Position numbers and translations under genes: made by a program
Part shown: positions 6,699-37,750 of the stretch, piece after piece
Layout of the letters: every line of letters begins with the position of its first letter
Numbering within the stretch: position 1 is the first letter of the stretch
The notes under the pieces: model-generated
The model's database searches: none
What the model saw: only the letters and a program-made list of their open reading frames with translations
Told to the model about the DNA's origin: nothing
Source: Fibrobacteria bacterium
GTDB lineage: Bacteria > Fibrobacterota > Fibrobacteria > UBA11236
Length of the DNA: 64,000 nucleotides
Assembly (NCBI GenBank): GCA_041746255.1
Contig: JBGTHM010000100.1
Span: 96,001-160,000, forward strand
Reading direction: 5' to 3'

Positions 6699-7289
6699 TT
6701 AGAATCGGGAACGGCCCGATAAGGTCATGGCCCCACCTTCGCCCTGGGTAACCGCATCGACGCGCAGCATAACCAAGCGGTCTTCGCTGGTTTCAATCAT
6801 GAAAACCGCCCCTGCCGTCACGGCCAAGCGGCCGTTTTCCTGCGGAGTTCCGCCATCCCAAGCGGATTGTAATCCACTTTGGTTGAGAACAGATTCCCAT
6901 TGGCTGCTCGCCACGTTTCGGATGGGCGTGGTGCGAGCCGGGGAGAAATTTGCGTAAAGAATGAAACCCTCGCTTACTCCCGGTATGCCTTCCACGGCTA
7001 CGTTGGGTGAATACACTGCGGAAACTTCTTGTTCGGTGGAAAATGCAAAAACCAGATCGATGTCTCCGGCTCGGGTCCTTGCTTCGGCGATAGGATAGAC
7101 CACCATGGCATCGGCATCCAAGGAGGATCCCAAAACATTCCCCTGAGCGCCCATTTGCACGTCACGGGTAGTTAACTCATCGACCGGGCCGTTGCCACCA
7201 CCGTCATCGGTAAGGCAACCGGTAAAAACAAAACTCATGACCAACAGGGAAATGGGCAGCCATTTTTTGGAAAAGAAAAGGGAATTCAT
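6699..7289 (-). CDS. Hypothetical lipoprotein (paralog of 7457..8065)
   Basis: AAGGAG RBS, lipobox FTGC, and motifs shared with the neighbour (GAQ, GSSLD, IDLVFA, YSP). Confidence 0.8.
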   Translation of the reverse strand: MNSLFFSKKWLPISLLVMSFVFTGCLTDDGGGNGPVDELTTRDVQMGAQGNVLGSSLDADAMVVYPIAEARTRAGDIDLVFAFSTEQEVSAVYSPNVAVEGIPGVSEGFILYANFSPARTTPIRNVASSQWESVLNQSGLQSAWDGGTPQENGRLAVTAGAVFMIETSEDRLVMLRVDAVTQGEGGAMTLSGRSRF

Positions 7290-7456: not shown

Positions 7457-8065
7457 TTAATACTTGGCTTTGAGACTCAAGCTGGTGGAACCCGAAGCTC
7501 CAGTAACAACCTCTTGAACAGTGAATATCACGATTTTGCCCAAATTCGATTTTGCCATGATGACATCATCTTTAGCAACGAGTACACGTCCCGGATCGAC
7601 TGGGGATATGGAGTCCCATAGCGTCTGCAACTTTGCTGGCGTGTCGGTCGAAGCGAATTTGGACTTGTCGTTTACCGGCTTGATGTCCGTTTTGTTGGCT
7701 GGACTCAAATCTGCCAAAAAGGCGAATCCAGCTGAGCCGCCGATTCCGTTTTTCGCCGCATCGGGTGAATATATGGCCGAGGCACTCGCTGAGGTGGAAT
7801 AGGCAAAAACCAAATCAATTGCGGCACTATTAGCAGCGAGTTGTGACATTGTATAAACAGTCGGTCCATCAAGATCCAAGGAAGAGCCCGCGGAAGCGGT
7901 TTGCGCGCCCAAGGTCACATTTTTTGATGTTAAGGTTTCAGTGGGAGTTGGATCCGGATCCGGATCCTTTTCGCTATCGGTCAAGCAGCCCGTGAAACCA
8001 ATGCTCAGGGCAACTAACGAGGTATATACCAGTTTACGGGGAAATTTGAAGGTATTGATATTCAT
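7457..8065 (-). CDS. Hypothetical lipoprotein (paralog of 6699..7289)
   Basis: AAGGAG RBS before the ATG at 8065, lipobox FTGC and a DPDPDPTP linker. Confidence 0.8.
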   Translation of the reverse strand: MNINTFKFPRKLVYTSLVALSIGFTGCLTDSEKDPDPDPTPTETLTSKNVTLGAQTASAGSSLDLDGPTVYTMSQLAANSAAIDLVFAYSTSASASAIYSPDAAKNGIGGSAGFAFLADLSPANKTDIKPVNDKSKFASTDTPAKLQTLWDSISPVDPGRVLVAKDDVIMAKSNLGKIVIFTVQEVVTGASGSTSLSLKAKY

Positions 8066-8252
8066 ACAGGACTCCTTGAAATAATTAAGAGAAAGGCGGT
8101 TAGAATAATAGAAATTCATTTGGTGGAAAAGTAAGTTACCTCCACCCCAAGAGGGTAACGCTTAAATTGCGACGGTGAGCGAAAAGAGAGGCTTTTCTTG
8201 ACATCCGGCCTCATTTTTACTTATCCAGATTTGGAAAGTCAAGAGAGATATT

Positions 8253-8414
8253 TCAATTCAGTTCCAGCTCTTTGATACGGTCGCGCAGCCGCGCAGCCTT
8301 TTCAAATTCCAGATTTTCCGCCGCCAAACGCATCAAGGTGCGCAATTTTCCTACGTCCTCCCGCCCGTATTTCTCCGTAGGCTCCGCCACGGCCGCCAAA
8401 CGGAGGGGATCCGG
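8253..8414 (-). repeat. Orphan duplicate of the uvrB 3' end (UVR domain, 53 codons plus stop); direct repeat of 9466..9627
   Basis: Codon-by-codon comparison gives 162 bp with 9 mismatches. Seven of the 8 changed codons are synonymous. Confidence 0.95.
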
Positions 8415-8692
8415 CATTGCGCGCATAGTGTGCAATGAAGGCGGGAAGAGAGAAAGCGGACATTGGCGCCAGGCGAAGTTCGCGCCGTTCGAAACCCATC
8501 CTGAATTGCCGCGAGGTCTTGAAAACCTATTTGGGCGAAGCCCCGAGCGAGCCCTGTGAGCGCCGCGCCCTGCGGTTTGTGGGCGATCGTGGGCCTCGGC
8601 ATTTTTGGGGGCGTCTTTTCTTCCTATTGACGGAAATTGGCTAAAGAGATGCGATTGTTATATGGCGACGCTTCATCCTTCAATGCCGGCTC
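8408..8692. repeat. Imperfect palindromic element (MITE- or attC-like)
   Basis: Terminal inverted repeats GATCCGGCATTG (8408-8419) and CAATGCCGGCTC (8681-8692) match at 11/12. Contains internal complementary tracts and a GGGC-GAA-GCCC hairpin. Confidence 0.45.
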
Positions 8693-9627
8693 CTCTACCC
8701 TCCGCAATTGTTTTTCAAATCCCGTAATCGATAAAATCATTTAAAATTGAGATCTGAATTTTTTTTGGGTCCCCTTTTTTATACTCTCTTTGAAATCCAA
8801 TCCACTTGTTTTTTTCAGATACTATTGAACCGGGCTCATTAGGTGTTGGCCAATAAACGTTGAATTCGTATCGCCTGCCCGATTCGACAAGCAGCGTTTC
8901 GGAAATTGACTTAGGAGGAATAGTATCTATAAAAATAAATGGTGTAGGTACCTTAGCTTCATGGCCTTGCAGCGGTTCTACATAGACCCGGATTGTTAGG
9001 TCAGAATTCATGTTATTTATGGTGACTCTATGGATATCCGGCAAGCTGTTGGTTTCTTCTTTAAGGCATCCGAAAAGGAGAAGCGTTATCAAAGCCAGGT
9101 ATGTTTTCACGATTTTCCACCAGTCACTTGACCTCGTCCGTACAACAAGGAATTGAAGCGCTGTTCTTTCTTCACGCCCCCAAATATACTTTCATTCGCT
9201 GGCCTTCAAGGACACAATTCGAGGCCCATGTCGCCCAACGTACCTTAGGCGAAAGCCTACCAGAATCCATGCGACCCAGGGCCCTCATTTGGATGGCTCT
9301 GGACAATTAAATAAAAATCCAGTTGTCCCACAGTATTTTCACGTGGGATTTGGAATCCTTCAGTAATTTGTCAAAAACCTCATTTTTAATGGATATAAGT
9401 ATCATTTCGTGAATAGGTTATGACAATAGGTTATGACTATTTACACAAAACTTCATATTCACTCCTCAGTTGACTTCCAGCTCTTTGATACGGTCGCGCA
9501 GCCGCGCCGCCTTTTCAAATTCCAGATTTTCCGCCGCCAAACGCATCAAGGTGCGCAATTTTCCCACGTCCTCCCGCCCGTATTTCTCAGTCGGCTCCGC
9601 CACGGCCGCCAGACGGAGGGGATCGGG
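8415..9627 (-). mobile_element. Putative islet inserted at the uvrB 3' end (no integrase in view)
   Basis: Bounded by the 162-bp uvrB direct repeats and carries an AT-rich cargo gene. Confidence 0.6.
8715..9110 (-). CDS. Small AT-rich hypothetical lipoprotein
   Basis: GTG start, signal peptide MKTYLALITLLLFGC. Only 19 of 60 bases are G+C at 8761-8820, well below the flanking genes. Confidence 0.7.
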   Translation of the reverse strand: MKTYLALITLLLFGCLKEETNSLPDIHRVTINNMNSDLTIRVYVEPLQGHEAKVPTPFIFIDTIPPKSISETLLVESGRRYEFNVYWPTPNEPGSIVSEKNKWIGFQREYKKGDPKKIQISILNDFIDYGI

Positions 9628-11445
9628 CGCCTCCGGGGTCATTTGCAGGTATTGGTGGATGATTCTCTGTACACTGCGCGGCTCTATTCCCCGCTCTAAA
9701 TTATAGGCCCGCTGCCGGTCGCGCCTTTTCGCCGTTTCATCCATGGCATAACGCATGGCTGCCGTTATCCTATCCGCATAGAGCAACACGCGCCCGTTCA
9801 CATTGCGAGCGGCGCGCCCAATGGTTTGGATCAAGGAACGTCCACTGCGGAGAAAACCTTCCTTATCCGCATCCAAAATTGCGATTAGCGAGACTTCGGG
9901 TAAATCCAGACCCTCGCGAAGCAGGTTGATGCCCACCAGAACATCAATCTCCCCTACCCTGAGTTGACGGACGATTTCACTTCGCTCCAAAGTGTCAGTA
10001 TCGGAGTGCATATACTGCACCTTCAAACCCGCATTTTGCAGGTACTCGGTAAGATCCTCGGCGCTGCGTTTAGTCAGGGTGGTTATCAAGGTTCTTTCGC
10101 CGAGCACTATCCGCTTGTGGATTTCATTGAGAATATCGTCAATTTGACCTTTCGGAGGTCGGATTTCAATTTCCGGATCCAGCAAACCCGTGGGACGGAT
10201 GACCTGTTCCACCACCAGGCCTTCCGATTTTTCCAATTCATAATCCGCCGGCGTGGCCGAAACGAAAAGGGTAAGCGGCATGCGCTGCTCGAATTCCTGG
10301 AATTTGAGCGGCCGGTTATCCATGGCGCAGGGCAAGCGAAAGCCATGTTCCACCAGGGATTCCTTGCGCGAGCGATCCCCGCTATACATGGCGCCTATTT
10401 GGGGAATGGTGGCATGGGATTCATCGATGACCAGGAGATAATCGTCGCCGAAAAAATCCATCAAGGTGCTGGGAGGACTGCCGGGCGCACGGTTTTCAAT
10501 CACCCGCGAGTAATTTTCGATTCCCGAACAATGCCCCACTTCCTTGAGCATTTCCATGTCATATTGCGTGCGCTGCACCAGGCGCTGAGCCTCCAGCAAT
10601 TTGTTCTGTGATGTGAATAGCCGTGATTGCTCATTCAGCTCGTTGCGAATGTCCGCCAAAATGCGATCCATATTGGCTTCGCTGGTGACATAATGGCGGG
10701 CGGGATATATCAGTATGCTCGGAAGCTCCGCCTCCTCTTCGCCGGTGAGTAGGTTGACCCGGGTCAGCTTTTCAATTTCGTCGCCGAAGAATTCGAGTCG
10801 ATAGGCGAAATCGTCATAAGCGGGATGGATTTCCACTACGTCCCCGCGTACCCGGAAAGTGCCCCTACGGAAATCGATGTCGTTGCGGGCATAGTGAATG
10901 TCCACCAGCTTACGCAATAAATCCGAGCGCTGGATTTCTTCGCCGCGACGCAATTCGACCATCATTTTGCGGTATTCCGCCGGCGCTCCCAGGCCATAGA
11001 TGCAGGATACCGAGGACACGACGATGACGTCCTGGCGGGACATCAGTGAGGCCGTGGCCCGCAGGCGCAATTTGTCGATTTCCTGATTGAGGCTGGAATC
11101 CTTTTCGATATAAGTATCCGAGCTGGCGACATAAGCTTCGGGCTGATAATAATCGTAATAGCTGACGAAATACTCCACCGCATTGCGGGGAAAAAACGCC
11201 TTGAACTCCTGGTATAACTGAGCCGCCAAGGTCTTATTATGGGAGATGATAAGCGTGGGTTTGGAGAGGCTCTGGATGACGTTGGCGATGGTGTAGGTTT
11301 TGCCGGAACCGGTAACACCCAGGAGGGTTTGGAATTTCTGGCCGTCGGATATTCCCTCCAGCAGACGACGGATGGCCTCAGGCTGGTCGCCGGCCGGTGA
11401 AAAGGGAGCTTCCAAATGAAAGAGAGAGTCGGGGACTTCAGTCAT
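9466..11445 (-). CDS. uvrB: Excinuclease ABC subunit B
   Basis: GDQPEAI, Walker [49 protein letters not shown] and a C-terminal UVR domain. Confidence 0.99.
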
Positions 11446-23999: not shown

Positions 24000-24983
24000 G
24001 TGGATATACAAGCAATCACGGAAAAGGTGAAAAGCCTGGAGCCGTTAATCCTCAAAATACAGGATGAGTTGGGAAAAGCCGTAATCGGCCAGAAAAGCAT
24101 GTTGGAACGCTTGCTTATCGGCATAATCGCCGATGGGCACGTTCTGCTCGAAGGCGTGCCGGGTCTGGCCAAAACCACCGCCGTCAAAGCGCTGGCGGCC
24201 TCCATCCACGCGCAATTCAGCCGTATCCAATTCACCCCCGACTTGTTGCCGGCCGACCTCATCGGCACTTTGGTGTTCAATCCGAAATCGGGCGACTTCA
24301 ACATCAAGAAGGGTCCCATTTTCGCCAACCTTATTTTGGCGGACGAAATCAACCGTGCTCCGTCCAAGGTGCAGTCCGCCCTGCTGGAAGCCATGCAGGA
24401 GAAAACCGTGACCATCGGGGACACCACTTTCGAATTACCCCCACTATTCTTGGTGCTTGCCACCCAGAACCCTTTGGAACAGGAAGGAACCTATCCCCTG
24501 CCCGAGGCCCAAGTGGATCGTTTCATGCTCAAGGTCACCCTCGACTACCCCACTCGGGAGGAGGAAAAGGCCATCGTCAACGCCGTCTCGGGCGCGGGCT
24601 TTCCCCAGTCGAAGCCGGTGGCCACCACGGAAGATTTGCTGCGCGCGCGGGAAATCGCCAAAGGCGTCTACATGGACGAGAAAATCAAGGATTATATCGT
24701 GAACCTGGTCGCCGCCACGCGCGATCCGGTAGGCGCGGGCATCAAAGACCTGGCCAACCTGGTGGAATACGGAGCCTCGCCGCGTACCAGCATCAGCTTG
24801 GCCAAGGCGGCCAAGGCCCATGCCCTGTTGAAGGCGCGCGGTTACGTCACCCCCGAAGACGTCAAGGCGGTGGGCATGGACGTGATGAAGCATCGCATCA
24901 TCCTTTCCTATGAGGCGCAGGCCGAAGAAATCAAGGTGGAGAACGTGGTGCAACGGGTATTCGACAACGTGGAAGTGCCGTAA
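24000..24983 (+). CDS. moxR: MoxR family AAA+ ATPase
   Basis: LEGVPGLAKT, RIQFTPDLLPAD, ADEINRAPSKVQSALLEAMQE, ATQNP and YGASPR. Confidence 0.96.
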   Translation: MDIQAITEKVKSLEPLILKIQDELGKAVIGQKSMLERLLIGIIADGHVLLEGVPGLAKTTAVKALAASIHAQFSRIQFTPDLLPADLIGTLVFNPKSGDFNIKKGPIFANLILADEINRAPSKVQSALLEAMQEKTVTIGDTTFELPPLFLVLATQNPLEQEGTYPLPEAQVDRFMLKVTLDYPTREEEKAIVNAVSGAGFPQSKPVATTEDLLRAREIAKGVYMDEKIKDYIVNLVAATRDPVGAGIKDLANLVEYGASPRTSISLAKAAKAHALLKARGYVTPEDVKAVGMDVMKHRIILSYEAQAEEIKVENVVQRVFDNVEVP

Positions 24984-25873
24984 TGATTTCCAAGGAAGTG
25001 CTTCGCAAGGTCCGGCAAATCGAAATACGCACCAGCAGCGTAGTCGATTCCGTGCTTTCCGGAGCGTACCATTCCTCGTTCAAGGGCAGGGGCATGGAGT
25101 TTTCCGAAGTGCGCGAATACGTGCCGGGAGACGAAATCCGTTCCATCGACTGGAATGTTACCGCCCGCACCGGCACGCCTTTCATCAAAAAATACGTGGA
25201 GGAGCGCGAGCTTACCGTGATTTTGGTGGTGGACGCGAGCTCTTCGGGGGAATTCGGCAGCCAATCGGAAATGAAGGGCGAGGTGATGGCTACCATCAGC
25301 GCACTACTGGCCTTTTCCGCCATTAAAAACAACGACCGCGTCGGATTGCTTATTTTCACCTCGCAAGTGGAGAAATTCATCCCGCCCCAAAAGGGTAAGA
25401 AACACGTGCTGCGCGTTATTCGGGAATTGCTGTATTTCCGCCCCCAGGCCAAGGGAACCGATTTGGCCATGGCCCTGGATCATCTCAACCGTATCCAGAA
25501 ACGCCGGGCCGTAGTCTTCGTGATCTCCGATTTCGCCACCGGCTCTTTCGAGAAACCCATCAAGCTGCTTAAACGGCGGCATGACAGCGTAGCTGTGGCG
25601 GTACTGGATCCGCGGGAGCGGGACTTTCCCGATATCGGATTCATCGAGTTGGAAGACGCCGAAACCGGCGAGTCCGTACTGGTGGATACCGGCGACGCGA
25701 ATTTCCGCAAACTTTTCCAGCGGGAGTCGCTACGGGAAACCACCGAGTTGCAAAAACTTTTCCGGCGGTTGAGTATGGACTATGTAGAAGTTCTCATCCG
25801 CAAAAATTACGACCAGACCGTGCATCCCCTCTTGGAATATTTTCGCAAAAGGTCGCTGAAGCATGGGCACTGA
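24983..25873 (+). CDS. DUF58 domain protein
   Basis: GRGMEFSEVREYVPGDEIRSIDWNVTAR and KYVEERE. Confidence 0.95.
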   Translation: MISKEVLRKVRQIEIRTSSVVDSVLSGAYHSSFKGRGMEFSEVREYVPGDEIRSIDWNVTARTGTPFIKKYVEERELTVILVVDASSSGEFGSQSEMKGEVMATISALLAFSAIKNNDRVGLLIFTSQVEKFIPPQKGKKHVLRVIRELLYFRPQAKGTDLAMALDHLNRIQKRRAVVFVISDFATGSFEKPIKLLKRRHDSVAVAVLDPRERDFPDIGFIELEDAETGESVLVDTGDANFRKLFQRESLRETTELQKLFRRLSMDYVEVLIRKNYDQTVHPLLEYFRKRSLKHGH

Positions 25874-26837
25874 CCGTCGCGGCGCTCTCTGGGCGCTGGT
25901 ACTCTGTATTTTCGGTTTCACCGGAGCGGGCGCGGCTTCCGCCGCGGGAAAGTTGGAGATATCTTCCCAGGTGGACCGCTCCGAAATTACCGTGGGCGAC
26001 CGCATCGTCTACACCATCACCGTGCAATATCCGGAAAATGGGACTGTCGAGCTGCCGTCGGTGCTGGGAAATCTCGGCGCCTTTGAAGTGAAGGAATACG
26101 GGGTGACCCCCGCGGAAACCAGAGATGGCCGCGTCTCGCAAACTTGGCGCTTCAGCCTGTCCACCTTTACCCTGGGAGATTTCACCCTTCCTCCCCAGCG
26201 AATCGATTTCATGGAAGGCGACGGAAAACTGCGCACCACCCACTTTACCCAGCCTATCGAAATCACGGTCAAGCGCACCTCACCCGAAGGAGCCAAGACC
26301 ATAGCGGATATCGCCGACTTGGCCGACATTCCCCAAGCGCCTCCCTGGGGCCTTATCGCCTTGGGAGCCCTGCTTGCCCTGGCAGCAGGCCTATGGGTCT
26401 GGCGGTCCAGGCGGAATCGGTCAGGCGCTTCCGACAAATCCATTCCTCGGTTGCCCCCCTATGAAGAGGCTTTGGAGCACCTCTCCCGATTGAACGCAAC
26501 CCAGTCGGTCCGGCAAAACCAGGCGCGGGAATTGTGTTTCGCCCTGTCTGAGATTTTACGGCGTTATGTGTCCCGACGGTTTACCGTCAACGGGTTGGAG
26601 GCCACCACCGAAGAATTCCTGCAACGCACTGCTGATCTTCCGGTGGACGTACCCCACCGCCGCTGGCTCGGGGATTTCTGCAGCCGCACCGATTTGGTCA
26701 AATTTGCGAACCTGAACCTGTTGGAAACCGAGGCCAACCAACTCATGCGCGAATTGCGGGAATTCCTCGATGCCACCCGACCGGCGCCCGAAACCCCCTC
26801 GGCATCTCCCTCCTCGAAGGGAGTGGCCCAAGCGTGA
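25863..26837 (+). CDS. BatD-like/DUF4381-like membrane protein of the bat operon
   Basis: Signal peptide, Ig-like domain (VDRSEITVGDRIVYTITV), TM helix, PPYEEAL, LEATTEE and DLVKFA. Confidence 0.8.
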   Translation: MGTDRRGALWALVLCIFGFTGAGAASAAGKLEISSQVDRSEITVGDRIVYTITVQYPENGTVELPSVLGNLGAFEVKEYGVTPAETRDGRVSQTWRFSLSTFTLGDFTLPPQRIDFMEGDGKLRTTHFTQPIEITVKRTSPEGAKTIADIADLADIPQAPPWGLIALGALLALAAGLWVWRSRRNRSGASDKSIPRLPPYEEALEHLSRLNATQSVRQNQARELCFALSEILRRYVSRRFTVNGLEATTEEFLQRTADLPVDVPHRRWLGDFCSRTDLVKFANLNLLETEANQLMRELREFLDATRPAPETPSASPSSKGVAQA

Positions 26838-27832
26838 TGTGGCCCACCTTTAACAGTCCCTGGTTTCTGCTGGGACTGCTGCTGATTCCCCTGTTGTTGT
26901 GGCGATACATTCGCTTAAGCGGCCGAAAGGAAGCGGGTATCCGCTTCCCCAGCCTGGGCATCATCAAACGTATTCCCAAGGGAACCTTCTACCATTTGCG
27001 CCATAGCCTTATCGCCCTGCGCCTGGCGGCTATAGCCTTTATCGTCATCGCCCTGGCGCGTCCGCAATACGGGGAATCCCTGGAAGAGGTGACCACCTCG
27101 GGCGTGGACATCGTGCTCATCCTGGATGTTTCCACCTCCATGAAAGTCATGGATTTCAAACCCAAGAACCGCTTGGTGGTCGCAAAACAGATTCTGGAGG
27201 ACTTCATCCTGGGCCGCAGGCATGACCGTATCGGCCTGGTGGTGTTCGCCGGAAAAAGCTACACCCAAAGCCCCCTTACCCTGGACTACGGTATCCTTGT
27301 CCAATTTTTACGTTCCGTCGATTTCGGAATTGTCGAGGACGGCACGGCCATCGGCACCGGGATACTGAACGGCGTGAATCGCCTTAAGAGCAGCGACGCC
27401 AAAAGCAAGGTGGCGGTGTTGCTCACCGATGGGGAAAACAACGCAGGGGAAGTCAGCCCCATGATGGCCGCCAGGGCCGCCAAAGCCATGGGAGTCAAGG
27501 TACATACCATTGGCGTGGGCAAGGACGGCGATCAGCCCATGGAAATCGACGATCCGGTTTTCGGGAAACGTATCGTCAGCGTGCCCACGAAAATGAACGA
27601 AGAGGAGTTGCTTGAAATCGCGACGCTTACGGGCGGGCAGTATTATCGCGCGCAGGATCCCGAGGCGTTGCGGAATATATTCGCGGCCATCGACGAATTG
27701 GAGAAAACCGAAATCCATACCACCACTTATAACCGTTACCATGAGCTTTTTTACAATTTGCTTCTGGTTGCGCTCGGCCTGCTTTTCGCGGAAATCATTC
27801 TCGCCAATACAAGGTTCATGAAAATCCCATGA
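26837..27832 (+). CDS. batA: BatA VWA-domain protein
   Basis: BatA N-terminal TM, LARPQ, MIDAS DVSTS, DRIGLVVFAG, GTAIG and LLTDGENN. Confidence 0.92.
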   Translation: MWPTFNSPWFLLGLLLIPLLLWRYIRLSGRKEAGIRFPSLGIIKRIPKGTFYHLRHSLIALRLAAIAFIVIALARPQYGESLEEVTTSGVDIVLILDVSTSMKVMDFKPKNRLVVAKQILEDFILGRRHDRIGLVVFAGKSYTQSPLTLDYGILVQFLRSVDFGIVEDGTAIGTGILNGVNRLKSSDAKSKVAVLLTDGENNAGEVSPMMAARAAKAMGVKVHTIGVGKDGDQPMEIDDPVFGKRIVSVPTKMNEEELLEIATLTGGQYYRAQDPEALRNIFAAIDELEKTEIHTTTYNRYHELFYNLLLVALGLLFAEIILANTRFMKIP

Positions 27833-28854
27833 GATTCGGATCCCCAACCAGCTTTTGGCTGCTGCTAGCCCTGCCCTTGCTGGCGGCTTTCTTCCTCTAT
27901 GCCATCCGGCGCAAGCGCCGCATGCTCCGACGTTTCGCCGAAGTGGAAATGCTGCGGAAAATGTCACAGAACATTTCGCCTTACCGGCAATTCCTGAAAG
28001 CCGCTTTGCAATTGACGGTGGTATTCTTCGTAGTGCTGGCTCTAACCCGCCCCCAATACGGCACCAAAATGGAAATGATGACGCGCCAGGGATTGGACGT
28101 GGTCATTGCCGCCGACGTTTCGCTTTCCATGCTCGCGGAAGACCTGAAACCCACACGCCTGGCCCGTACCAAACAGGAAATGGGCCGTTTCGTCGACAAT
28201 CTCTCCGGCGACCGTATCGGCCTGGTGGCTTTCGCGGGTGAGGCTTTTCTGCAATGTCCGCTTACCACGGACTACGGGGCCTTCAAAATTTTTCTCGACG
28301 AACTCGGTCCCGAGTTGATCGGCACGCCGGGGACCTCGATAGGAGCGGCGTTGGAAACGGCCCTCAAGGCGTTCGATCCCACGGAAAGGAAATACCGGGT
28401 GGTGGTATTGCTTACCGATGGCGAAGACCACAGCGGCGCGGCCGAAAAAGCGGCCCAGAAAGCCGCCGAGCAGGGAGTCATACTCTATACCGTCGGCATC
28501 GGATCACGCGGGGGAGCGCCCATTCCAGTCCGGGATCAGCGCGGTAGGGTCAGTTATAAAACCGATGCGCGTGGAAACGTGGTCACCACCCGCCTCGACG
28601 AGGTTTTACTCCAGAAAATGGCCTTGGCTACGGGAGGCAAGTATTTTCATGCTTCTCCCGGCAGCTTTGAACTGAAGCAGGTTTTGGAGGAAATCAACGC
28701 CATGGAAAAAAGGAAACTGGAGGGAGAACACTTCACCCAATTCGAGGAACGCTTCCAATGGCCGCTTACCGTGGCGCTAATCCTGATCGTGGGCGAAATG
28801 CTGCTTTCCGACCGGCGAAGGCGGAAACGCGAATGGGAGGGGCGTTTTTCATGA
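27829..28854 (+). CDS. batB: BatB VWA-domain protein
   Basis: LTRPQYG, MIDAS DVSLS, QCPLTTDY, LLTDGEDH and the GAPIP...VTTRLDE insert. Confidence 0.9.
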   Translation: MRFGSPTSFWLLLALPLLAAFFLYAIRRKRRMLRRFAEVEMLRKMSQNISPYRQFLKAALQLTVVFFVVLALTRPQYGTKMEMMTRQGLDVVIAADVSLSMLAEDLKPTRLARTKQEMGRFVDNLSGDRIGLVAFAGEAFLQCPLTTDYGAFKIFLDELGPELIGTPGTSIGAALETALKAFDPTERKYRVVVLLTDGEDHSGAAEKAAQKAAEQGVILYTVGIGSRGGAPIPVRDQRGRVSYKTDARGNVVTTRLDEVLLQKMALATGGKYFHASPGSFELKQVLEEINAMEKRKLEGEHFTQFEERFQWPLTVALILIVGEMLLSDRRRRKREWEGRFS

Positions 28855-29750
28855 ATTCTTCCCACCGTTATCCCATGTATTTCAAGATGCCTTATCCGCT
28901 CACTATGGCCGTGTGCCTTTCCATCACCATCGCTTTCTCTCAGGAAGCGTCTCCCGGCGAGGAAAATCGCGCCGCCCGTCATGAAGCGGGTGAGCAATGG
29001 AAGTCCACCTCGGGCCCGGAAAGAATATGGGAGAAAATCCTGCAATCCTTTCTCCTCAAACCGACGCCTGCCAAAGCCGGTAAGCGCGCCTATGTCGCGG
29101 AAGATTATGCCACGGCACTGCGGAAATACACGGAAGCCGGATTCGACCATCCCGGTTCGCAATCGCTGGCATATAATACGGGAAACGTCCATTACCGCCA
29201 GGGCCGCTTCGACGACGCCGCCCGTCATTTCGAGGAAGCGCTGAAAGGGACCAATGCGACCCTGGCCGCTAATGCCTATTACAATCTCGGCAATGTCTTT
29301 TTCCGGAAAGGGGAAGCGGCCGGGGAAGGAGGCGCGGAAAAAGCTTTAGCGGAATTTCGCGAAGCCTTGGCGCATTACAAAAAGTCCCTGGAAATTAAGC
29401 CCGAAAACGCCGAAGCCAAACGAAACATCGAAGTGACGCAGGCCCGTATCAAGGAGTTGCTGGAACAGCAGCAGCAAGATCCATCCCAGGGGGGCGGGGA
29501 GCCGCCTCCGGAGCCAAGCGAACGCGCTAAACAAATTCTGGCTCGCGCCATGCAACTTTCGGCGCAACGCAAATATTCCGAGGCCAAAAGCCTGCTGGAA
29601 GCGATAATTCGCGAAGACGAAACCGCCGCGAGTTTCAAATCGCATGTACAAAGGATTCAGGATGTACTCGATTTGCTGAGCGGTAAGATGCCGACTCCTC
29701 CCGAGTCCGGCGATCCACGCGCAAGACAAGAGGGGTTGGGTGTGATATGA
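28851..29750 (+). CDS. batC: BatC-like TPR protein
   Basis: TPR repeats (YNTGNVHYRQG, AYYNLGNVFF, YKKSLEIKPENAEAKRN). ATGA overlap with batB. Confidence 0.75.
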   Translation: MNSSHRYPMYFKMPYPLTMAVCLSITIAFSQEASPGEENRAARHEAGEQWKSTSGPERIWEKILQSFLLKPTPAKAGKRAYVAEDYATALRKYTEAGFDHPGSQSLAYNTGNVHYRQGRFDDAARHFEEALKGTNATLAANAYYNLGNVFFRKGEAAGEGGAEKALAEFREALAHYKKSLEIKPENAEAKRNIEVTQARIKELLEQQQQDPSQGGGEPPPEPSERAKQILARAMQLSAQRKYSEAKSLLEAIIREDETAASFKSHVQRIQDVLDLLSGKMPTPPESGDPRARQEGLGVI

Positions 29751-30322
29751 AAAGCCCCGCCTTTTTTCCCAAATCCCTGTCACTCCTATTTCTGGTCCTC
29801 GCTGGGGCGCTTTGCGCCAAATCGGCGGATATGTATTTCCACGGCGGAGGACATAAATATGTGCAGGGACGCATCCAGGAAGCTTCCATCGAAATCGAGG
29901 AAGGCGTGCGGGCACATCCTCAGGACAAGCGACTGACGGACTTTGCGGAATATCTACGAAAACTGAAAGACGAACAAAAGCAACAAGACGGCGATCAGCA
30001 ACAGAATAAGCAAGAGCAACAAGAGGGTCAAGACCAGGAGAAACCGGAAGATTCGGGCGAACAGGACCGGCAACAAGATAAACCGCCGGAAGACAAACCC
30101 GAGGATCAAGAAGGGAAATCCGATCCGAAGCCCGATGAAGGTTCAGAAAAACCGGAGGAGGAAAAGCCCAAGCCCGATGCCGCCCGGCCGCAACCGCAGC
30201 CCGGCGAAATGTCGGAGGAGGAGGCGGAACGTTTGCTGAGGGCTTTTGAAGCCGACGAAAAAGAGCAACGGAAAAAGGCGCCTGCGCCCGCACAAAGAGG
30301 GGGTGGCGATGTGGATTGGTAA
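29747..30322 (+). CDS. Gln/Glu/Lys-rich exported protein resembling the BatC C-terminus
   Basis: Signal peptide, low-complexity Q/E/K tract, MSEEEAERLL motif and a terminal DW. Confidence 0.75.
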   Translation: MKSPAFFPKSLSLLFLVLAGALCAKSADMYFHGGGHKYVQGRIQEASIEIEEGVRAHPQDKRLTDFAEYLRKLKDEQKQQDGDQQQNKQEQQEGQDQEKPEDSGEQDRQQDKPPEDKPEDQEGKSDPKPDEGSEKPEEEKPKPDAARPQPQPGEMSEEEAERLLRAFEADEKEQRKKAPAPAQRGGGDVDW

Positions 30323-30335
30323 TCGACGGCCACGC

Positions 30336-32117
30336 ATGCGCGTATCCCGGTTCGGCTTCGCTTTCCTGGCCATTCTATTTACGGTTCATCTGGCTTCAGC
30401 CGATTTTACCGCGGACGCGACCATTTCCACCAATCATGTGGGAACGGGCGAGCCGTTTCAGCTTTCGGTGCAAGTGGGGGTTACCAACGAAGATACCGAT
30501 CTTCCCTGGCCCATCGTGGAAAACCTGGAACCCTTCACAGTCGCCAAGGGCTCAACCACCGCCCAGTCCTCGGAAACCACCATCATTAATGGACGCATCA
30601 CCCGCAGAAACCGTTTTATCACCACCTTCACCTATACCTTGACCGCTGCGCAACCGGGTAATTTCCACATCGGACCCATCCGATACCGGTATGCGAATTC
30701 GGAACGTAACCTGGGCAGTACCACGGTACAGGTGGTCAAACGCGAGCCGGGTATCCGGCTGATTCCCAGCCTGAATAAATCCTCCGTCTTCGTAGGGGAG
30801 CAGTTGGTCTATACGCTGCGCATCATTCCCGGTCCCGGCGTGCAGAAAATCTCCCGCCCGGAAATCCAAAAGCTTATCGGCGACAAGTTCTGGTTCCAAC
30901 ATCTGGACGATAAAATCGATTCAAAAATCGTGAAAATCGGCGGTGAAGATACCCGCGTCTTCGACGTGCGCATCGTGCTTTTTCCCTTGCTGGCCGGAGC
31001 AGTCGACTTGCCGGGCATTCCGGTGGAATATGAACAGGCTACGCGCACCCGGCGACGCACCGGATCGGTTTTCGATTTCTTCGAAGACGATTTTTTCGGA
31101 GGAGCGGCGCAATCCCTTTCCGCCACCAGCCACGGACTCAAATTAAAGGTCGAACCTTTGCCCTTGCCCTCTCCCGACGGCTTCTCCGGAGCGACGGGCA
31201 ATTATAGCCTGTCGGCGCAGGTCGATAAATCATCTCTGCCTTCCGGCGACGCCTTTACCCTTACGGTCACCATCAAAGGCGACGGACAGCCCAAATCCAT
31301 TACCCAGCCGCAACTACCTGATTTAGGCGATTTCGAACTTTACGATCCCGAGGTAACGGAAAAAACCCAGGTGCAGGGGTCTACCCTCATTACTACCAAA
31401 ACATTCAAATATGTCCTGGTCCCGCGCCGTAGCGGATCCCGGAAAATCGACCCTTTGCAATTCCACTATTTCGACCCGAAAAAAGGCCGCTACGCTTCCG
31501 CCTCCTCGGAAACCATCCCCATCGAAGTCACACCGGGCAAGGATTTGGCCGAACCGGCGGGTGTGGTGTTATCGCAGCGGGAAATCACGGAACTGGGATC
31601 CGATATCCGGCATATCAAATCGGCTGGCGCGCCCCTGGCCATGGAAAACGGTTTTCTGCATAAGCGTTGGGGATTCTGGCTGCTTTTCGTCTTCCCCCCT
31701 CTGGGCTTTTTCGCCCTGCTGTGGCAAGGCAGGCGCCGCGCCAGGCTGGATTCCGACATCGGCCTGAGACGGAGACTCGGAGCGGGATCCGAATCGAGAA
31801 AGCGATTGCAATTGGCGCGTAAAGCCCTGGAAGGCGAGGATGCGCGTGAATTCCATCGCTTGCTTTCGTCGGCGCTTCAGGGTTACCTCTCGGATAAACT
31901 CGTCACGGAGTTCAAAGGCATGACGAGCGGACAGGAGCGGGATAGGCTCATGGCGGCGGGCGTATCCGAGAATACGCGCTTGCTTTATGACAAATTACGG
32001 CAACAATGTGATTTCGCACAATTCGCCGGCGCGCGTTTCGATAAACAAACCTTGCAAAAAACCTATGCGGAAGCCGAAACCGTCTTGAAAAGCCTGGACA
32101 AGGAGATACGCGTATGA
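30336..32117 (+). CDS. batD: BatD family protein
   Basis: Tandem BatD Ig-like domains (TTIING; VFVGEQLVYT; FSGATGNY; YFDPKKGRY) and a C-terminal TM helix. Confidence 0.9.
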   Translation: MRVSRFGFAFLAILFTVHLASADFTADATISTNHVGTGEPFQLSVQVGVTNEDTDLPWPIVENLEPFTVAKGSTTAQSSETTIINGRITRRNRFITTFTYTLTAAQPGNFHIGPIRYRYANSERNLGSTTVQVVKREPGIRLIPSLNKSSVFVGEQLVYTLRIIPGPGVQKISRPEIQKLIGDKFWFQHLDDKIDSKIVKIGGEDTRVFDVRIVLFPLLAGAVDLPGIPVEYEQATRTRRRTGSVFDFFEDDFFGGAAQSLSATSHGLKLKVEPLPLPSPDGFSGATGNYSLSAQVDKSSLPSGDAFTLTVTIKGDGQPKSITQPQLPDLGDFELYDPEVTEKTQVQGSTLITTKTFKYVLVPRRSGSRKIDPLQFHYFDPKKGRYASASSETIPIEVTPGKDLAEPAGVVLSQREITELGSDIRHIKSAGAPLAMENGFLHKRWGFWLLFVFPPLGFFALLWQGRRRARLDSDIGLRRRLGAGSESRKRLQLARKALEGEDAREFHRLLSSALQGYLSDKLVTEFKGMTSGQERDRLMAAGVSENTRLLYDKLRQQCDFAQFAGARFDKQTLQKTYAEAETVLKSLDKEIRV

Positions 32118-32899
32118 AAATCCGGGCCATTACTGCATTGTGGGCCGTTTTGCTCGCGGTAGGCGCCGTGATTTTCATGTCTCCGAGCGTAGCGCGCGCC
32201 GATGCGCAGCGAGCCCATGAGCAATTCCTTGCGGGTAACCAGGCCTATGAAGCCGGTGAGTTCCAAATGGCGGTGGATGCCTACCGCCGCGCGCTGGATG
32301 AAGGTTTGGTGAACAGTCGTCTCTATTACAACTATGGGAATGCCCTTTATCGGTTGAACCGGCTAGGCCCAGCCATTCTCTACTATGAAAGGGCGCTTAA
32401 ACTCACGCCCCATGACGACGACATCCGGCACAACCTCCGATTCGCCAACGCCCGCATCGTCGATAAACCGTCGGAGCCGGCCTCGAACGCGCTGACCCGC
32501 TTTCTCTGGAAGGTCCATGCCGGGTACTCGCTCAATCAGGGACTTTGGGCGTCCTTGGCCCTATTTTCCCTCATTTTCCTGTTCGCGGGCTTGCGAACCT
32601 ACCTTCCGAACTGGAAAGCCTTATGGACAATGGCACTGGTAGCGTGTCTACTGGCCATTGTGAGCTTCGTACCTTCCTTGACCTATCGCATATACGTGAC
32701 GGAAGCCGCCCGGCATGCCGTGGTTTTGGAGCCCACCCTGAATTTATACAGCGGTCCTGGTCGGAATTATGAGCTCCTGTCCAAAATCCACGAGGGGACC
32801 AAAGTGGAAGTGACCAGCGCGAAAGACGATTGGGCCCTCATTAAGCTGTCCAATGGTCTCGGAGGTTACGTTACTTTAGATGCTTTAGGACGCATATAG
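32114..32899 (+). CDS. batE: BatE (TPR + SH3-like)
   Basis: GNQAYEAG, LYYNYGNALYR, AILYYERALKL.P.D.DIRHNL, two TM helices and an SH3-like IHEGTKV. Confidence 0.9.
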   Translation: MKIRAITALWAVLLAVGAVIFMSPSVARADAQRAHEQFLAGNQAYEAGEFQMAVDAYRRALDEGLVNSRLYYNYGNALYRLNRLGPAILYYERALKLTPHDDDIRHNLRFANARIVDKPSEPASNALTRFLWKVHAGYSLNQGLWASLALFSLIFLFAGLRTYLPNWKALWTMALVACLLAIVSFVPSLTYRIYVTEAARHAVVLEPTLNLYSGPGRNYELLSKIHEGTKVEVTSAKDDWALIKLSNGLGGYVTLDALGRI

Positions 32900-33057: not shown

Positions 33058-33264
33058 TCACTCATAATCAGCTTGAGTACCCGTAAAAACGCCAATTCCG
33101 GATGAAATCCTAAGGTTGGGTAGAGTTATAATCAAGTAGGCGTATCCTAAAGCTGATTGGGGATTCCAATGAACACATCAAAGCAAACGACCTTGCCGCA
33201 AGGCAAGACTGAAGTATCCACCTGCTTACCTGGTACTCCAAAAATTATTATCAAGGAAATTGGC

Positions 33265-36200
33265 ATGAAATTGACCGTAGTGGGACTAACCCTCTTCGCG
33301 TTTTGCACCGGCGCTTTGGCGCAGAATAATCCTCCCTCCACTATCACCCTGCAAGCCAAACTGCGCGACTTCAAAGAAAGTCCCGATCTCGGCAAGGTGG
33401 TTGCGGGTCATCACCCCCATTTCAATGCTTGCGCGAGTACCGGATTGGCCGCGGGAAACATTGAGACTCAAATCAATGTGAATGGTCAATCAGATCCCCG
33501 ATTTGAAGGAGATAATCGCAATCCCAAGTTGAAAGTTCCCCTGAATTCCAATGCATGCCTTACCCCCGTCGAACGTTTCGAAGATTGGTTCAACGACAAA
33601 AGCTCCGACATAAACCGTGCCTTTCTCACCGAACTCCAATTTGTGCGTAATGATGTTACAGGTATGTACGAATACGGCAACAGCGCCTACTTTCCCCTGA
33701 ATAATGGAAAACTGAACCAGGCGGGTGGATACACAAAATTCGACCCAAGCGATCCCAACCCGTTCGGACACTTACAAAGTGGAATTGTGAATAACATTGA
33801 TCTTTCAAGCCGTAACTATGGTTTTACTCTGGAAATGCATACCAGCTTCGCATATCATGCCGGCGAAGGGCAGACCTTTCTTTTTCGCGGCGATGACGAT
33901 GTTTGGGTGTTCATAAACGATAAATTGGTAATTGATTTGGGAGGAATTCATTCAGCCTTGGAAAGAGTCGTGAACCTGGACAATCTGGCCGCACAACTCG
34001 GACTTGTAGACGGTGAAAATTATCCCCTCGACTTTTTCTTTGCGGAACGACGTGTCACTCAATCCAACCTTTTCATCACTACCAGTCTGGCCTTGGCTCA
34101 GCCATCGATTGTCGATAATATCACCGCATCCCCACCGGGCCACACCTTCCCTATTCAAACCCAGGTGACCCTGTCTACCCCGACTCCTGAGGTAACCATA
34201 CGCTATACGATTGACGGCAGCACTCCCGACAGCACCAGCACCATCTACACCGGCCCCCTCACTTTCATCGAAACCACCATCCTAAAAGCCATAGCCTATA
34301 AGGCCGGCTGGTTACCAAGCGAAGTGTTGACCGAGACTTATACCAAGGTTGCACCCAAGAGTAGTCTGCAAATCCTGAACGCTACAGGCCAACCCTTCGC
34401 CTCGGGCTATCTCACCCAAAATGACAATGCTTTCACCGTCCAGGTCACCACGTACCAGGCCGGACTCACCTCCATCTCCCCCACTTCGGCCACACAAATC
34501 AAAGGAGATAACCTCACACTCACCCTCTCCAATCCTGTCATCGGCAATACCATCGTGTATACCGGGACTGTTCCTTTCAAATCCAGTGACGATCCGGTAT
34601 CTATTGCCAATACACTGGAGGCTGCCTTTTACGACACGGTAACGGTAACCTGGGTCAATCCCAGCGATCCCACCGATATCGCCACCGCCAAAATGCCGGT
34701 ACGAGCGGCTCCGAAACAGGCAACGGCCTATTTTTCCACCAACCCCCAGGGAACAGACACTACGGACACCTATGTGGGAACAGAAGCCTTCCTCTATATC
34801 ATCATCGATGACCAGATTCTGCCTCCCGGGGCCGGCCAAGTTACCCTGACCACCACTCCTTTTTTGGGAGGCCAGCCCGACAATCTTATCCTGCCCCTGA
34901 CCCCGGTTGCGGGAACGCCTGGACGCTATAGCGCCACCATCCCTACAGACCTGCTTAACCCCGTGAATACAGCGGACGGCTTGTTACAACTGGCGCTGCA
35001 AGACGAAATAAAAGCCACCTACCAGGATCCCACCTCACCGACGGAGCCTCCCGCCATAGCTAATGCCGGGTTCGGCATCAAACCCGAAATTACCGCCCAA
35101 TTCGAGTTTACTGATGCGAATTACGTTCCCTTACCCCCCGGAATCCACTGGAGCCCCACCGAAGGTTTCATCTACCTTCGTTACCGCGACGACGTTTTTG
35201 ACGGCTCCATTACCACTAAGCAACTGAATGTGGTGGTAACCAACAACCAGGGTAAGGCTAAAGGCGATGAAGAAAAATCCACCCTCGTTCTCACCCTCAA
35301 TCCCGGCGCCACCCAGCAATCCACCGGATTCTGGTTCGGAAAATTTCCACTCAAAGATCTGCCCAATCCCGGCCTCGAGAATTCGATTGTGGAGACCTAT
35401 ATCCTGGGTGAGGTCACGGTAAGCGTTCCTACGCATAACAAATTAGGGACGGCAGGCCCGAATATCACGACCCAGCTTCGGGTTGCCTATCCCGATGAGA
35501 ACGAAGTACTGGCCCTAGTGAATACCGCGGATCCCGTCGCCGAAATTGAACGGGCCACCAACTCGATAACCGTAATCATCAAGGACCAGACTTATTCGTC
35601 GGTGCAGGACACCATCTTCGCCGACATGAGTTGCACCAATTCCGGAGATATTTTACGGAATGTCCGCCTGATCGAATCCGACACGCAACCCGGAACCTAC
35701 ACCTCGGCGCCCGTCGCAAAAAACGAGGGAAGCGTCGATACGGGCGACTTGGTCTTGACCTGCAAGGATACGGATGAAATCAAGCTGCAATACACCGATC
35801 AAGTTTACGGAAACATTCGCGAAATCGTGGTTCCCTTCGGTGGTCAGAGCGTCAATCTCAAACTCTATTATACCGAAAAGGATAAAACCCAGCCTATATC
35901 CTTCATCCGCGTCTCGCAGGGAAATTCCTTTATGGCCTGGGTGGAAGGACACAGCCCCCGGGTCAATCAAATCGATACCATCGCCATTTCCTTCACCACG
36001 GAGCAAGGGGAGAATGAAACATTTTACGCCGTGGAAACCGGACCCTTCACCCAGCTTTTCAAGGTTGAGGTTCCTTTCGCTTTCGTAGACGGAAAACCCA
36101 CCGTCAACAACAAGATTATCGATGCTCAACTCGTCAGCCAAACTTCCCTGGGGAGAGTGGTGGTAACCGGTAAGGTAACCCATAACGGTGTTACCCGTGA

Positions 36201-37503
36201 AGCGACAATCGTTCTGCAATCCGAATTCATCCTGGCCACCACCGCATATATCAAGGACGAGAATGGTAACGGCCGCGGTGATAAGGTGTACATCGTTTTC
36301 GAAAGCCCGTTAGCCGAATTGCCTGCGCAACTGGACAGCGTCTACTGGAACGAAGCCAAAAAGGAATTCGTCCAGGTCGCCGGAAAAAGCCGCCTCTCCT
36401 TTTTGGAAGGCAGCAACAATACAGTTGTAGTCGCCGATTTTACCGATTCGGAGTTCGGAGAAAACCTGACCTCCATTCCCGCAGGTGCGAACCCTTATGT
36501 CCTGCTCCCCGATAACCTGGTTTTTCTGGGGCAGAAAGTCGCCATCGCCGATTCGATCGGGCCGGTAATCATTACCGCGGTGAAAAAACCCGCTGACCTT
36601 ACCAACCCCAACTCCAGCAATCCTGAATTCAATCTCGATACCTTGGTGGTAAAGCTTTCTGAGCCTATCACGACCCAAACCGATTGGAACGAACTCCTGC
36701 GATTTTCGACGGACTGTAAGGATTACACCAATAGTTTCGTAATCAAGCCGAACGGAGACCCGGTTTTCGGAGACGGCGGCACTACCGTCACCATAGTAAT
36801 CAACAATGCCGATGGAAAATCCCCTCAACCTGGAAATTGCCTGTTCCTGAACACCGATGGACGCTATACCGACAAAGTCGGAAACATCCCGCCCGAGAAG
36901 GGGGTTAAGATTACAGGAGAGCCTGCCAAGCTGATATTGCAGGGCCTGCGGGGCTTCCCTCCCGTAGCCGGAATGGATCCGAGTAAGAACCCCGATAAAT
37001 TCATCTTCGCCATAAACGAGAAAATATCCGATACGGAAAACCCGAAGGGTTATACCGTTAAGGATGGCGACTCGCGTGTTGTGAATTGGATTCCTCCGGT
37101 GGAATGGCAAAAGAATTCAACCTTCCGACCCTTCATACCCGACAAGGTAACCGACGGCAGTCAGGGAGGCGATAATACTGGGATTCAGCCCATGCCTGTG
37201 AATGAGGTCAGCGCCGTCCAGGTTATTACCACGGGTAAATACATCGCCCACATAAACCTTTTCGACCATCTGGGAAACTTCGTAAAATCGTGGAGCCAAG
37301 CTTTCGGCTATCGAGGCGAATTGGCCAACCGGGACCGCATTGTTCCCAAGGGATTGGTAAGTTACCTGGTATGGGACATGAAGGACCATCGGGGCCAAAG
37401 GGCCGGACAGGGTGCTTATGTTTGGAAGGTGATTTTCACCTTCGAAAGCAACAAGCAGGAAGTCCGATATATCCGTACTGGAGTACTCAGAAGCGACGAC
37501 TGA
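33265..37503 (+). CDS. Fibro-slime domain surface protein with CHB_HEX_C domain and FlgD-Ig-like C-terminus
   Basis: AAGGAA RBS and signal peptide. Fibro-slime/PA14 motifs NYGFTLEMHT, FRGDDDVWVFIN, IDLGGIH and FFAER. CHB_HEX_C motif IRYTIDGSTP. C-terminal WDMKDHRGQRAGQGAYVWK. Confidence 0.9.
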   Translation: MKLTVVGLTLFAFCTGALAQNNPPSTITLQAKLRDFKESPDLGKVVAGHHPHFNACASTGLAAGNIETQINVNGQSDPRFEGDNRNPKLKVPLNSNACLTPVERFEDWFNDKSSDINRAFLTELQFVRNDVTGMYEYGNSAYFPLNNGKLNQAGGYTKFDPSDPNPFGHLQSGIVNNIDLSSRNYGFTLEMHTSFAYHAGEGQTFLFRGDDDVWVFINDKLVIDLGGIHSALERVVNLDNLAAQLGLVDGENYPLDFFFAERRVTQSNLFITTSLALAQPSIVDNITASPPGHTFPIQTQVTLSTPTPEVTIRYTIDGSTPDSTSTIYTGPLTFIETTILKAIAYKAGWLPSEVLTETYTKVAPKSSLQILNATGQPFASGYLTQNDNAFTVQVTTYQAGLTSISPTSATQIKGDNLTLTLSNPVIGNTIVYTGTVPFKSSDDPVSIANTLEAAFYDTVTVTWVNPSDPTDIATAKMPVRAAPKQATAYFSTNPQGTDTTDTYVGTEAFLYIIIDDQILPPGAGQVTLTTTPFLGGQPDNLILPLTPVAGTPGRYSATIPTDLLNPVNTADGLLQLALQDEIKATYQDPTSPTEPPAIANAGFGIKPEITAQFEFTDANYVPLPPGIHWSPTEGFIYLRYRDDVFDGSITTKQLNVVVTNNQGKAKGDEEKSTLVLTLNPGATQQSTGFWFGKFPLKDLPNPGLENSIVETYILGEVTVSVPTHNKLGTAGPNITTQLRVAYPDENEVLALVNTADPVAEIERATNSITVIIKDQTYSSVQDTIFADMSCTNSGDILRNVRLIESDTQPGTYTSAPVAKNEGSVDTGDLVLTCKDTDEIKLQYTDQVYGNIREIVVPFGGQSVNLKLYYTEKDKTQPISFIRVSQGNSFMAWVEGHSPRVNQIDTIAISFTTEQGENETFYAVETGPFTQLFKVEVPFAFVDGKPTVNNKIIDAQLVSQTSLGRVVVTGKVTHNGVTREATIVLQSEFILATTAYIKDENGNGRGDKVYIVFESPLAELPAQLDSVYWNEAKKEFVQVAGKSRLSFLEGSNNTVVVADFTDSEFGENLTSIPAGANPYVLLPDNLVFLGQKVAIADSIGPVIITAVKKPADLTNPNSSNPEFNLDTLVVKLSEPITTQTDWNELLRFSTDCKDYTNSFVIKPNGDPVFGDGGTTVTIVINNADGKSPQPGNCLFLNTDGRYTDKVGNIPPEKGVKITGEPAKLILQGLRGFPPVAGMDPSKNPDKFIFAINEKISDTENPKGYTVKDGDSRVVNWIPPVEWQKNSTFRPFIPDKVTDGSQGGDNTGIQPMPVNEVSAVQVITTGKYIAHINLFDHLGNFVKSWSQAFGYRGELANRDRIVPKGLVSYLVWDMKDHRGQRAGQGAYVWKVIFTFESNKQEVRYIRTGVLRSDD

Positions 37504-37520
37504 TTTCCCACTTTTACATC

Positions 37521-37553
37521 GAATCCTCCTCCGGTATTTCCGAAGGAGGATTC
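37521..37553 (+). terminator. Hairpin downstream of the fibro-slime gene
   Basis: GAATCCTCCT...AGGAGGATTC stem with no strong T tail. Confidence 0.45.
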
Positions 37554-37750
37554 CGATAGCCTCCCAGCCCCCCCAAAAACCTCCACCTCCAAAAATGGTC
37601 GTTTGAGTTTCCCTCCACAATTCTGCGCCAAAACCCGGCCTCCCCGCAAGCAACTCAAAATGCGTGTATTCGCCGTTTTTTCCCGCTATACTTAGGCTTG
37701 CAGAGATGTCCCTTGACCCGGAATACCCCGCAGTCACGGTGAGGTGACAA

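Follow-up and report, generated by a model that had tools for sequence, protein, structure and literature searches.

The sequence considered here is a 64 kb window, i.e., the whole stretch of DNA that was analysed, from an uncultured Fibrobacterota bacterium of a lineage known from metagenome-assembled genomes (MAGs) alone. In this window the uvrB gene is followed by a small islet that lies between two copies of the last 53 uvrB codons. The gene end is duplicated and its copies have diverged under purifying selection, the DNA between them is foreign and unique, uvrB itself is intact, the empty site is present in relatives and no recombinase is found. We propose, with a probability of about 0.5, that the islet is an integrase-less stub, similar to a cis-mobilizable element (CIME), of an element once integrated at the 3' end of uvrB. 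The argument with most weight is that the homology ends at the stop codon: the two tails are 94% alike and the sequences that follow them have nothing alignable, which points to an attachment site.

The duplicated 3' end of uvrB

The uvrB gene (positions 9466–11445, minus strand) is an intact ORF (open reading frame) of 659 aa with matches to the Pfam families UvrB_inter, Helicase_C, UvrB, ResIII and UVR. The protein is 70–79% identical to UvrB of Fibrobacterota MAGs. The last 53 codons and the TGA stop (9466–9627, minus strand) represent the first copy of the repeat. This copy is in frame with the body of the gene, and the element side starts directly after the stop, so that the end resembles an attL (left attachment) junction. 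The second copy (8253–8414, minus strand) also has 53 codons plus TGA and is displaced downstream. It resembles an attR (right attachment) junction and would be the analogue of the icdC pseudogene of E. coli. It is located within an ORF of 57–60 aa (8253–8435) and matches NCBIfam models of the UvrB/UvrC UVR motif.

A repeat search aligns positions 8253–8415 with 9466–9628 over 163 nt, with 94% identity, a spacing of 1213 bp and the same strand orientation. Comparison base by base over 162 nt shows 153 identical positions and nine mismatches in eight codons. Seven of these codons are synonymous and one is a CTG (L)/GTC (V) difference. The longest identical run is 56 bp. A preliminary description of this DNA had reported a 162 bp repeat at an offset of 1213 bp with the same count of mismatches and a single V/L change; the repeat search and the base comparison bear out the former, and the codon-by-codon comparison the latter.

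The limits of the homology are sharp. One limit is exactly at the TGA (8252/9465) and the other is at codon Pro607 (8415/9628), and the flanking sequences beyond both are unrelated. At position 8415 sequence that is not uvrB meets the middle of the tail, and this junction has no k-mer in common with the other copy. By analogy, a homology that extends from an arbitrary internal codon to the exact stop has the look of an attachment (att) site at which an incoming element provides a replacement 3' end.

A self-comparison of the 64 kb by blastn gives three repeat pairs at E ≤ 1e-5. The uvrB tail pair (E = 1.7e-67) is the sole pair with more than 75% identity, and there is no third copy of the tail in the window. 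A duplicated gene end could also be produced by assembly, i.e., the contig may join two strain haplotypes whose tails never coexist in one genome. An origin in a lineage known only from MAGs, the single contig and the amount of difference between the copies, which is as large as would be expected between co-occurring strains or species, are all compatible with this. A switch between haplotypes would, however, leave a single tail with either of two sequences downstream of it, and not two tails in tandem. Also against it are the lack of shared k-mers at the 8415 junction with no shared run longer than 56 bp, the absence of any other near-duplicate in the 64 kb, and the presence of the same anatomy in a finished genome (e14 at icd, see below). 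We regard an assembly artefact as improbable.

The reading frame of the displaced tail (8253–8657, minus strand) has no stop for 134 codons as it continues upstream into the GC-rich arm of the insert, and there is no ATG, GTG or TTG before 8435. The gene caller of the source yielded a 57 aa protein with a UVR motif from this frame. When small proteins resembling the displaced tail were looked for, there was one match among 61 candidates, which is the window's own 57 aa ORF. With its UVR motif intact, the ORF could conceivably yield a separate UvrB C-terminal domain with an effect on the contact between UvrB and UvrC, which we consider very unlikely.

Divergence of the two tails

The differences between the two tails are nearly all silent. 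Analysis by the Nei-Gojobori method gives eight synonymous differences in 39.8 sites and one non-synonymous difference in 119.2 sites. The divergence per synonymous site (dS) is 0.234 and per non-synonymous site (dN) is 0.0084, with a dN/dS ratio of 0.036. Nine random substitutions were simulated 100,000 times under each of three transition biases. The probability of at most one residue change without a stop is 9e-5, 2.1e-4 and 5.7e-4. The near-silent divergence argues that both tails served as UvrB ends during the time they diverged. That both copies evolved as functional UvrB tails had been proposed at the outset, and this appears sound in view of the dN/dS ratio and simulated probabilities of about 1e-4 to 6e-4.

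A simpler origin would be duplication of the uvrB end in place, followed by divergence and with no foreign DNA involved. The copies are indeed close together and on the same strand. A dead copy would, however, gain mostly non-synonymous changes, and eight of the nine differences are silent; in addition, the intervening 1051 bp are not duplicated and have a foreign composition. Duplication followed by decay is rejected on the silent-site bias of the tail differences, and we find an origin in place extremely hard to credit.

Divergence under purifying selection argues instead that one tail is xenologous. Its source would be a bacterium fairly closely related to this one, or an element resident in hosts of that kind. 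The signals that might separate the imported tail from the native one are weak: the GC content at third codon positions is 0.72 and 0.66 in the two tails vs 0.64 in the body of uvrB. The in-gene tail has the commoner host codon at five of the seven synonymous differing codons, which is too weak to tell the native tail.

Comparison with e14 at icd

The arrangement has a close parallel in the annotated genome of E. coli K-12. The annotated start of the cryptic prophage e14 is 165 bp short of the end of icd, and just past the far end of the prophage is icdC, a pseudogene of 165 bp. The two 165 bp copies have 12 differences, 10 of them silent and two between Asp and Glu. The sequence before the repeat is unrelated and the homology reaches the stop. 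The 3' end of icd is also targeted by phage 21. Excision of e14 at icd and icdC is reportedly the subject of Hill et al. (1989). The e14/icd/icdC arrangement, the recombination of icd with icdC during excision of e14 and the excision of e14 on SOS induction are described in PMC13626634.

The uvrB islet is similar in several ways. In both cases the repeat consists of approximately the last 54 codons of the target gene plus the stop (165 bp in e14, 162 bp in the islet), one copy completes an intact gene and the other is displaced to the far end. The divergence of the copies is 7.3% in e14 and 5.6% in the islet, with 10 of 12 and 8 of 9 differences silent, and both repeats end at the stop. The differences are in the content and the target. 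Prophage e14 measures 15.2 kb, encodes intE and xisE and targets icd, whereas the islet insert is 1.05 kb with no recombinase and one orphan gene, and the target is uvrB. This e14/icd/icdC control bears out the general point of the preliminary description that elements which target protein-coding genes often bring a replacement 3' end with them.

A sequence of events for uvrB can be modeled on this case. An element would have integrated site-specifically at the 3' end of uvrB with its own substitute for the last 53 codons. As the element brought a substitute end, uvrB would have remained intact and the other copy would have been displaced 1.2 kb downstream as a pseudo-tail. The junctions would be the work of a tyrosine or serine integrase, which may have been deleted later together with the remainder of the element or may have acted in trans. 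The part left between the att-like repeats would be a 1.05 kb remnant with one AT-rich orphan lipoprotein gene and its promoter-like region. For such a remnant the only ways out today would be recombination of the 162 bp repeats by RecA or a cognate integrase provided in trans.

The uvrB locus in related bacteria

Genome contigs were scanned with UvrB. There were 599 matching stretches, 572 of them confirmed, and all locus counts given here refer to the best 80. Twelve of these 80 loci are from Fibrobacterota-like MAGs (70–79% UvrB identity); the remainder (54–61%) are from Bacillota, Mycoplasmatota and Actinomycetota. Ten of the 12 Fibrobacterota loci extend past uvrB, and two (L006 and L010) end within the gene. 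The count of second tails covers 77 loci in which the C-terminus is present, 74 of them with at least 500 bp of downstream sequence.

In each of the 10 Fibrobacterota loci that extend past uvrB, the gene is followed by one lipoprotein gene and then by asmA, with no interruption. The lipoprotein gene of the relatives is homologous to lipoproteins of 220 aa and 196 aa in the window, and none of the 10 loci has a second tail of its own uvrB. The preliminary description had suggested that the region downstream of uvrB be compared in related genomes for an empty site. This site exists in all 10 loci and is seen in distant relatives only (70–79% UvrB identity). The native downstream context, a 133 bp spacer and the 220 aa lipoprotein gene, is found in the window beyond the displaced tail (7457–8252, minus strand), in agreement with the synteny of the 10 relatives. 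The interval between the uvrB and asmA matches is 0.9–1.2 kb in eight of the 10 loci, 2.0 kb in L011 and 1.7 kb in L078. In the window it is 2.9 kb.

The two lipoprotein genes of the window are tandem paralogues on the minus strand between the islet and asmA (6699–7289, 196 aa, and 7457–8119, 220 aa). The proteins are 37% identical, both have an F-T-G-C lipobox and neither has a match in Pfam, NCBIfam or PHROGs. A single lipoprotein gene between uvrB and asmA is found in eight of the 10 relatives, and locus L005 has a second copy past asmA. Additional lipoprotein-like ORFs on the opposite strand are present in the uvrB–asmA interval of L011 (12060–12800, 246 aa) and L078 (5301–5690, 129 aa). 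They are not flanked by uvrB tail repeats and are unrelated to the gene in the islet. The contig of L005 (CAYQFG010000008.1) is labelled 'uncultured Bifidobacterium sp.'; its UvrB identity of 70% and its full Fibrobacterota synteny (Cu-oxidase_4, TPR, uvrB, lipoprotein, asmA) suggest that the bin label is wrong.

The insert

The insert is 1051 bp (8415–9465) and consists of an AT-rich arm, one ORF and a GC-rich arm. The AT-rich arm (9111–9465) is non-coding with 42% GC and extends from the uvrB stop to the start of the cargo gene, with no family match in 10 frames. A weak sigma-70-like promoter match is present at 9426–9398 on the minus strand (2 found vs 2.6 expected). Nearby is a perfect tandem 13-mer, AATAGGTTATGAC, in two copies (9412–9437, plus strand). 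It is located 28 bp past the stop of uvrB, in overlap with the -35 element of the promoter-like match. There are no exact copies of the 13-mer besides these two in the 64 kb, and with up to three mismatches there are 15 matches vs 9.4 expected. The tandem may represent a protein-binding site, either of the arm type or an operator.

The cargo ORF (8715–9110, minus strand) was found by ORF calling. It encodes 131 aa from a GTG start, with an N-terminal signal peptide and a lipobox, LFGC. Its GC content is 39.2% vs an ORF mean of 54.1% (z = -4.0), the lowest among 43 window ORFs. The AT-rich lipoprotein gene noted earlier between the copies is confirmed as an ORF. The ORF has no family match in Pfam, NCBIfam or PHROGs. 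A word-index search of 5.8 billion proteins returned no match, itself included, and therefore the gene caller of the source did not produce this protein. An exhaustive HMMER search of 1.84 billion representatives gave seven weak matches, all to repeat proteins of 1920–6629 aa, which were judged uninformative. In the ESM Atlas the ORF matches unnamed small-protein clusters only, and the single-sequence AlphaFold2 model, with a mean confidence score (pLDDT) of 37.8, is unusable. The cargo is probably an orphan lipoprotein gene.

The GC-rich arm (8415–8714) is non-coding with 56% GC and adjoins the displaced tail. It has no family match in 11 frames and no similarity elsewhere. None of the 80 loci contains a match to the cargo ORF, and no sequence similar to the insert was found in the window, in these loci or in plasmid or phage collections. 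With its low-GC cargo and no match elsewhere, the insert is foreign.

The preliminary description also placed a palindromic element between the copies, which finds no support. The fold of 8400–8720 has a z value of -0.16, with 43 of 100 shuffled sequences folding as well. Rfam gives no match at E ≤ 1 over 8100–9700, and the inverted repeats near the insert are short and at chance level. One inverted repeat of 16 nt (8404–8419/8681–8696, 14/16 complementary) brackets the GC-rich arm, with one of its arms spanning the repeat/insert junction; it is at chance level among 27 pairs in 8 kb.

A transposon, insertion sequence or miniature inverted-repeat transposable element is rejected in that no inverted repeat pairs the ends of the insert at 8415 and 9465. 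The duplication is 162 bp and diverged and is therefore not the product of staggered cleavage. An integron cassette is similar to the islet as a single-ORF unit of approximately 1 kb that relies on an integrase encoded elsewhere. Cassettes, however, do not duplicate 162 bp of a target gene, and the cargo of the islet has its own promoter-like region. This candidate is also rejected, as there is no attC-like fold in 8400–8720 and no intI in the window.

The islet may also have been acquired with no integrase at all. A linear chromosomal fragment of a sister species could have been imported by homology-facilitated illegitimate recombination, with the donor DNA anchored at one end by homology inside uvrB and joined illegitimately at the other to codon 607 of the recipient uvrB. 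The last 53 codons of the recipient would then have been left behind the donor uvrB end and the donor downstream DNA. This accounts for the missing recombinase, the arbitrary inner boundary at codon 607, the dS of 0.23, which is at the level of sister species, and the host-like GC (56%) of the 8415–8714 arm. The process is established in transformable bacteria, reportedly through the work of de Vries and Wackernagel (2002) and Prudhomme et al. (2002); to our knowledge, natural competence is not known for Fibrobacterota. The islet resembles the products of such imports in having about 1 kb of foreign DNA next to a conserved gene, no mobility gene and one end in homology, and small variable segments are described as a major source of within-species diversity (PMC2884548).

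An imported fragment, however, predicts neither a homology limit exactly at the stop codon nor a complete substitute gene end that has been maintained by selection. The DNA just past the donor stop is unlike that of the recipient, though the coding tails are 94% identical. As 10 of 10 relatives have the lipoprotein gene right after uvrB, the donor would itself have to carry an insertion at precisely the stop of its uvrB, so that the problem is shifted to the donor and not solved. The 39% GC cargo is foreign to the lineage in either case. Import of a fragment is the main alternative, yet we consider it unlikely.

Relation to cis-mobilizable elements

A CIME is an islet that has neither integrase nor transfer genes and retains attL and attR (PMC5704250). 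The classical streptococcal CIMEs are 1.2–13 kb and are found at the 3' ends of fda, rpmG, rpsI and rplL, and also at tRNA-Lys (PMC7563491, PMC5704250). The unit in the window, 1.2 kb with one cargo gene and without integration and transfer genes, is similar. Its repeats are present, with neither a core nor an arm site for a recombinase assignable in them, and the tandem 13-mer at 9412–9437 is at most suggestive of an arm site. There are two differences. The streptococcal att repeats are short, whereas the repeat of the islet is 162 bp. A CIME is identified through its descent from an integrative and conjugative element (ICE) or an integrative and mobilizable element of the same site specificity, or through tandem accretion with one, whereas no such element is known for Fibrobacterota, none of uvrB specificity is found in the window, in the 74 other uvrB loci or in the open-access literature searched, and the islet has no visible decayed mobility gene. 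The preliminary description had considered uvrB an undescribed kind of site. This claim is too strong, because an islet without an integrase, located at the 3' end of a gene between att-like repeats, already has a name, the CIME (PMC5704250, PMC7563491).

It was also suggested that small cassettes cycle in and out of uvrB. A circle of about 1.2 kb with a uvrB tail would repeatedly integrate and excise at the 3' end of the gene, either by Campbell-type recombination or by an integrase encoded elsewhere, and uvrB would be a site of cargo capture. The repeats, at 162 bp with an identical run of 56 bp, are long enough for RecA excision and re-insertion. The uvrB–asmA interval varies among relatives, with the extra lipoprotein-like ORFs of L011 and L078, and the tandem 13-mer by the junction could be an arm-type binding site. 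There is, however, no second instance (no duplicated tail in the 10 relatives or in any of the 74 loci), and the extra ORFs in L011 and L078 lack flanking tail repeats and show no relation to the cargo. The window has no integrase, neither a circle nor an allele with the site empty has been seen, and a 1.2 kb circle would be without replication or transfer function. With the arrangement on a single contig and no duplicated tail in the 74 other loci, nothing shows a 1213 bp circle, a trans-acting integrase or cycling of cassettes, and we doubt that such a cycle operates.

A related and bolder proposal is that the 3' end of uvrB is a still active att site in this lineage. Small integrase-less cassettes, each with its own uvrB tail kept up by selection, would enter and leave there through the action of an integrase gene located elsewhere in the genome, with the 13-mer at 9412–9437 as the arm site, and the interval between uvrB and asmA would be a spot where lipoprotein genes are shuffled. 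We consider this very unlikely.

Several results weigh against the islet as a CIME-like remnant of an integrated element. The arrangement is known from one contig (184,911 bp) and is a single instance, and its junctions are known from assembled sequence alone. The protein cluster of the window UvrB, with two member sequences, is seen on one contig, and the next best C-terminal match is 66–69% identical (among 8000 candidates sharing most words). A second uvrB tail is found in none of the 74 loci with at least 500 bp downstream, and no cognate uvrB-specific element is seen there. Recombinase matches are absent from the cargo ORF and from 21 stop-to-stop frames of the islet (Pfam at E ≤ 1, NCBIfam and PHROGs), no integrase or excisionase, or fragment of one, is found in the islet or in 49 window ORFs, and none of these 49 ORFs across the 64 kb has a recombinase or transposase domain. 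The lack of a recombinase agrees with the preliminary description. No recombinase core site can be identified, with the inverted repeats at the junctions at chance level. The cargo gene itself is not certain, for want of a product of the gene caller.

In the open-access literature searched, no report was found of uvrB as an attachment site or of a cognate uvrB-specific element. The passages that name uvrB concern other matters, i.e., uvrA/uvrB as ICE cargo (PMC7466150), which is unrelated to uvrB as an integration site, a small 'UvrB' mis-annotated on a phage-inducible chromosomal island integrated in tRNA-Thr (PMC11773190), an engineered insertion into uvrB of pCF10 (PMC4894674), and a genome-completeness check (PMC6951406).

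Other features of the window

A Bat/MoxR-type operon is located at 24000–32896. It encodes an AAA_3 MoxR ATPase, a DUF58 protein, a DUF4381/BatD-like protein, two BatA-VWA proteins, BatD and a TPR-SH3 protein. Three giant proteins that appear to be secreted (1448, 2032 and 2205 aa) are encoded at 33157–43846 and 50547–57161, and have CHB_HEX_C_1/Fn3_assoc, PA14, Big_7 and PKD repeats. The first two (1448 and 2032 aa) have common internal repeats that are 67–75% identical.

Significance

The e14/icd case and the CIME concept together cover the mechanism, and therefore no general principle is changed. Apparently only the target gene, uvrB, and the phylum are unreported. The cargo, an orphan lipoprotein of unassigned role, gives no pointer to a phenotype. 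If the proposal is correct, uvrB would join the protein-coding genes whose 3' ends are attachment sites, and the islet would be the first att-bounded integrase-less islet in Fibrobacterota, a phylum in which mobile elements are almost unstudied. It would also be a teaching case, in which the silent-site divergence of a duplicated gene end reveals an old integration after all mobility genes are gone.

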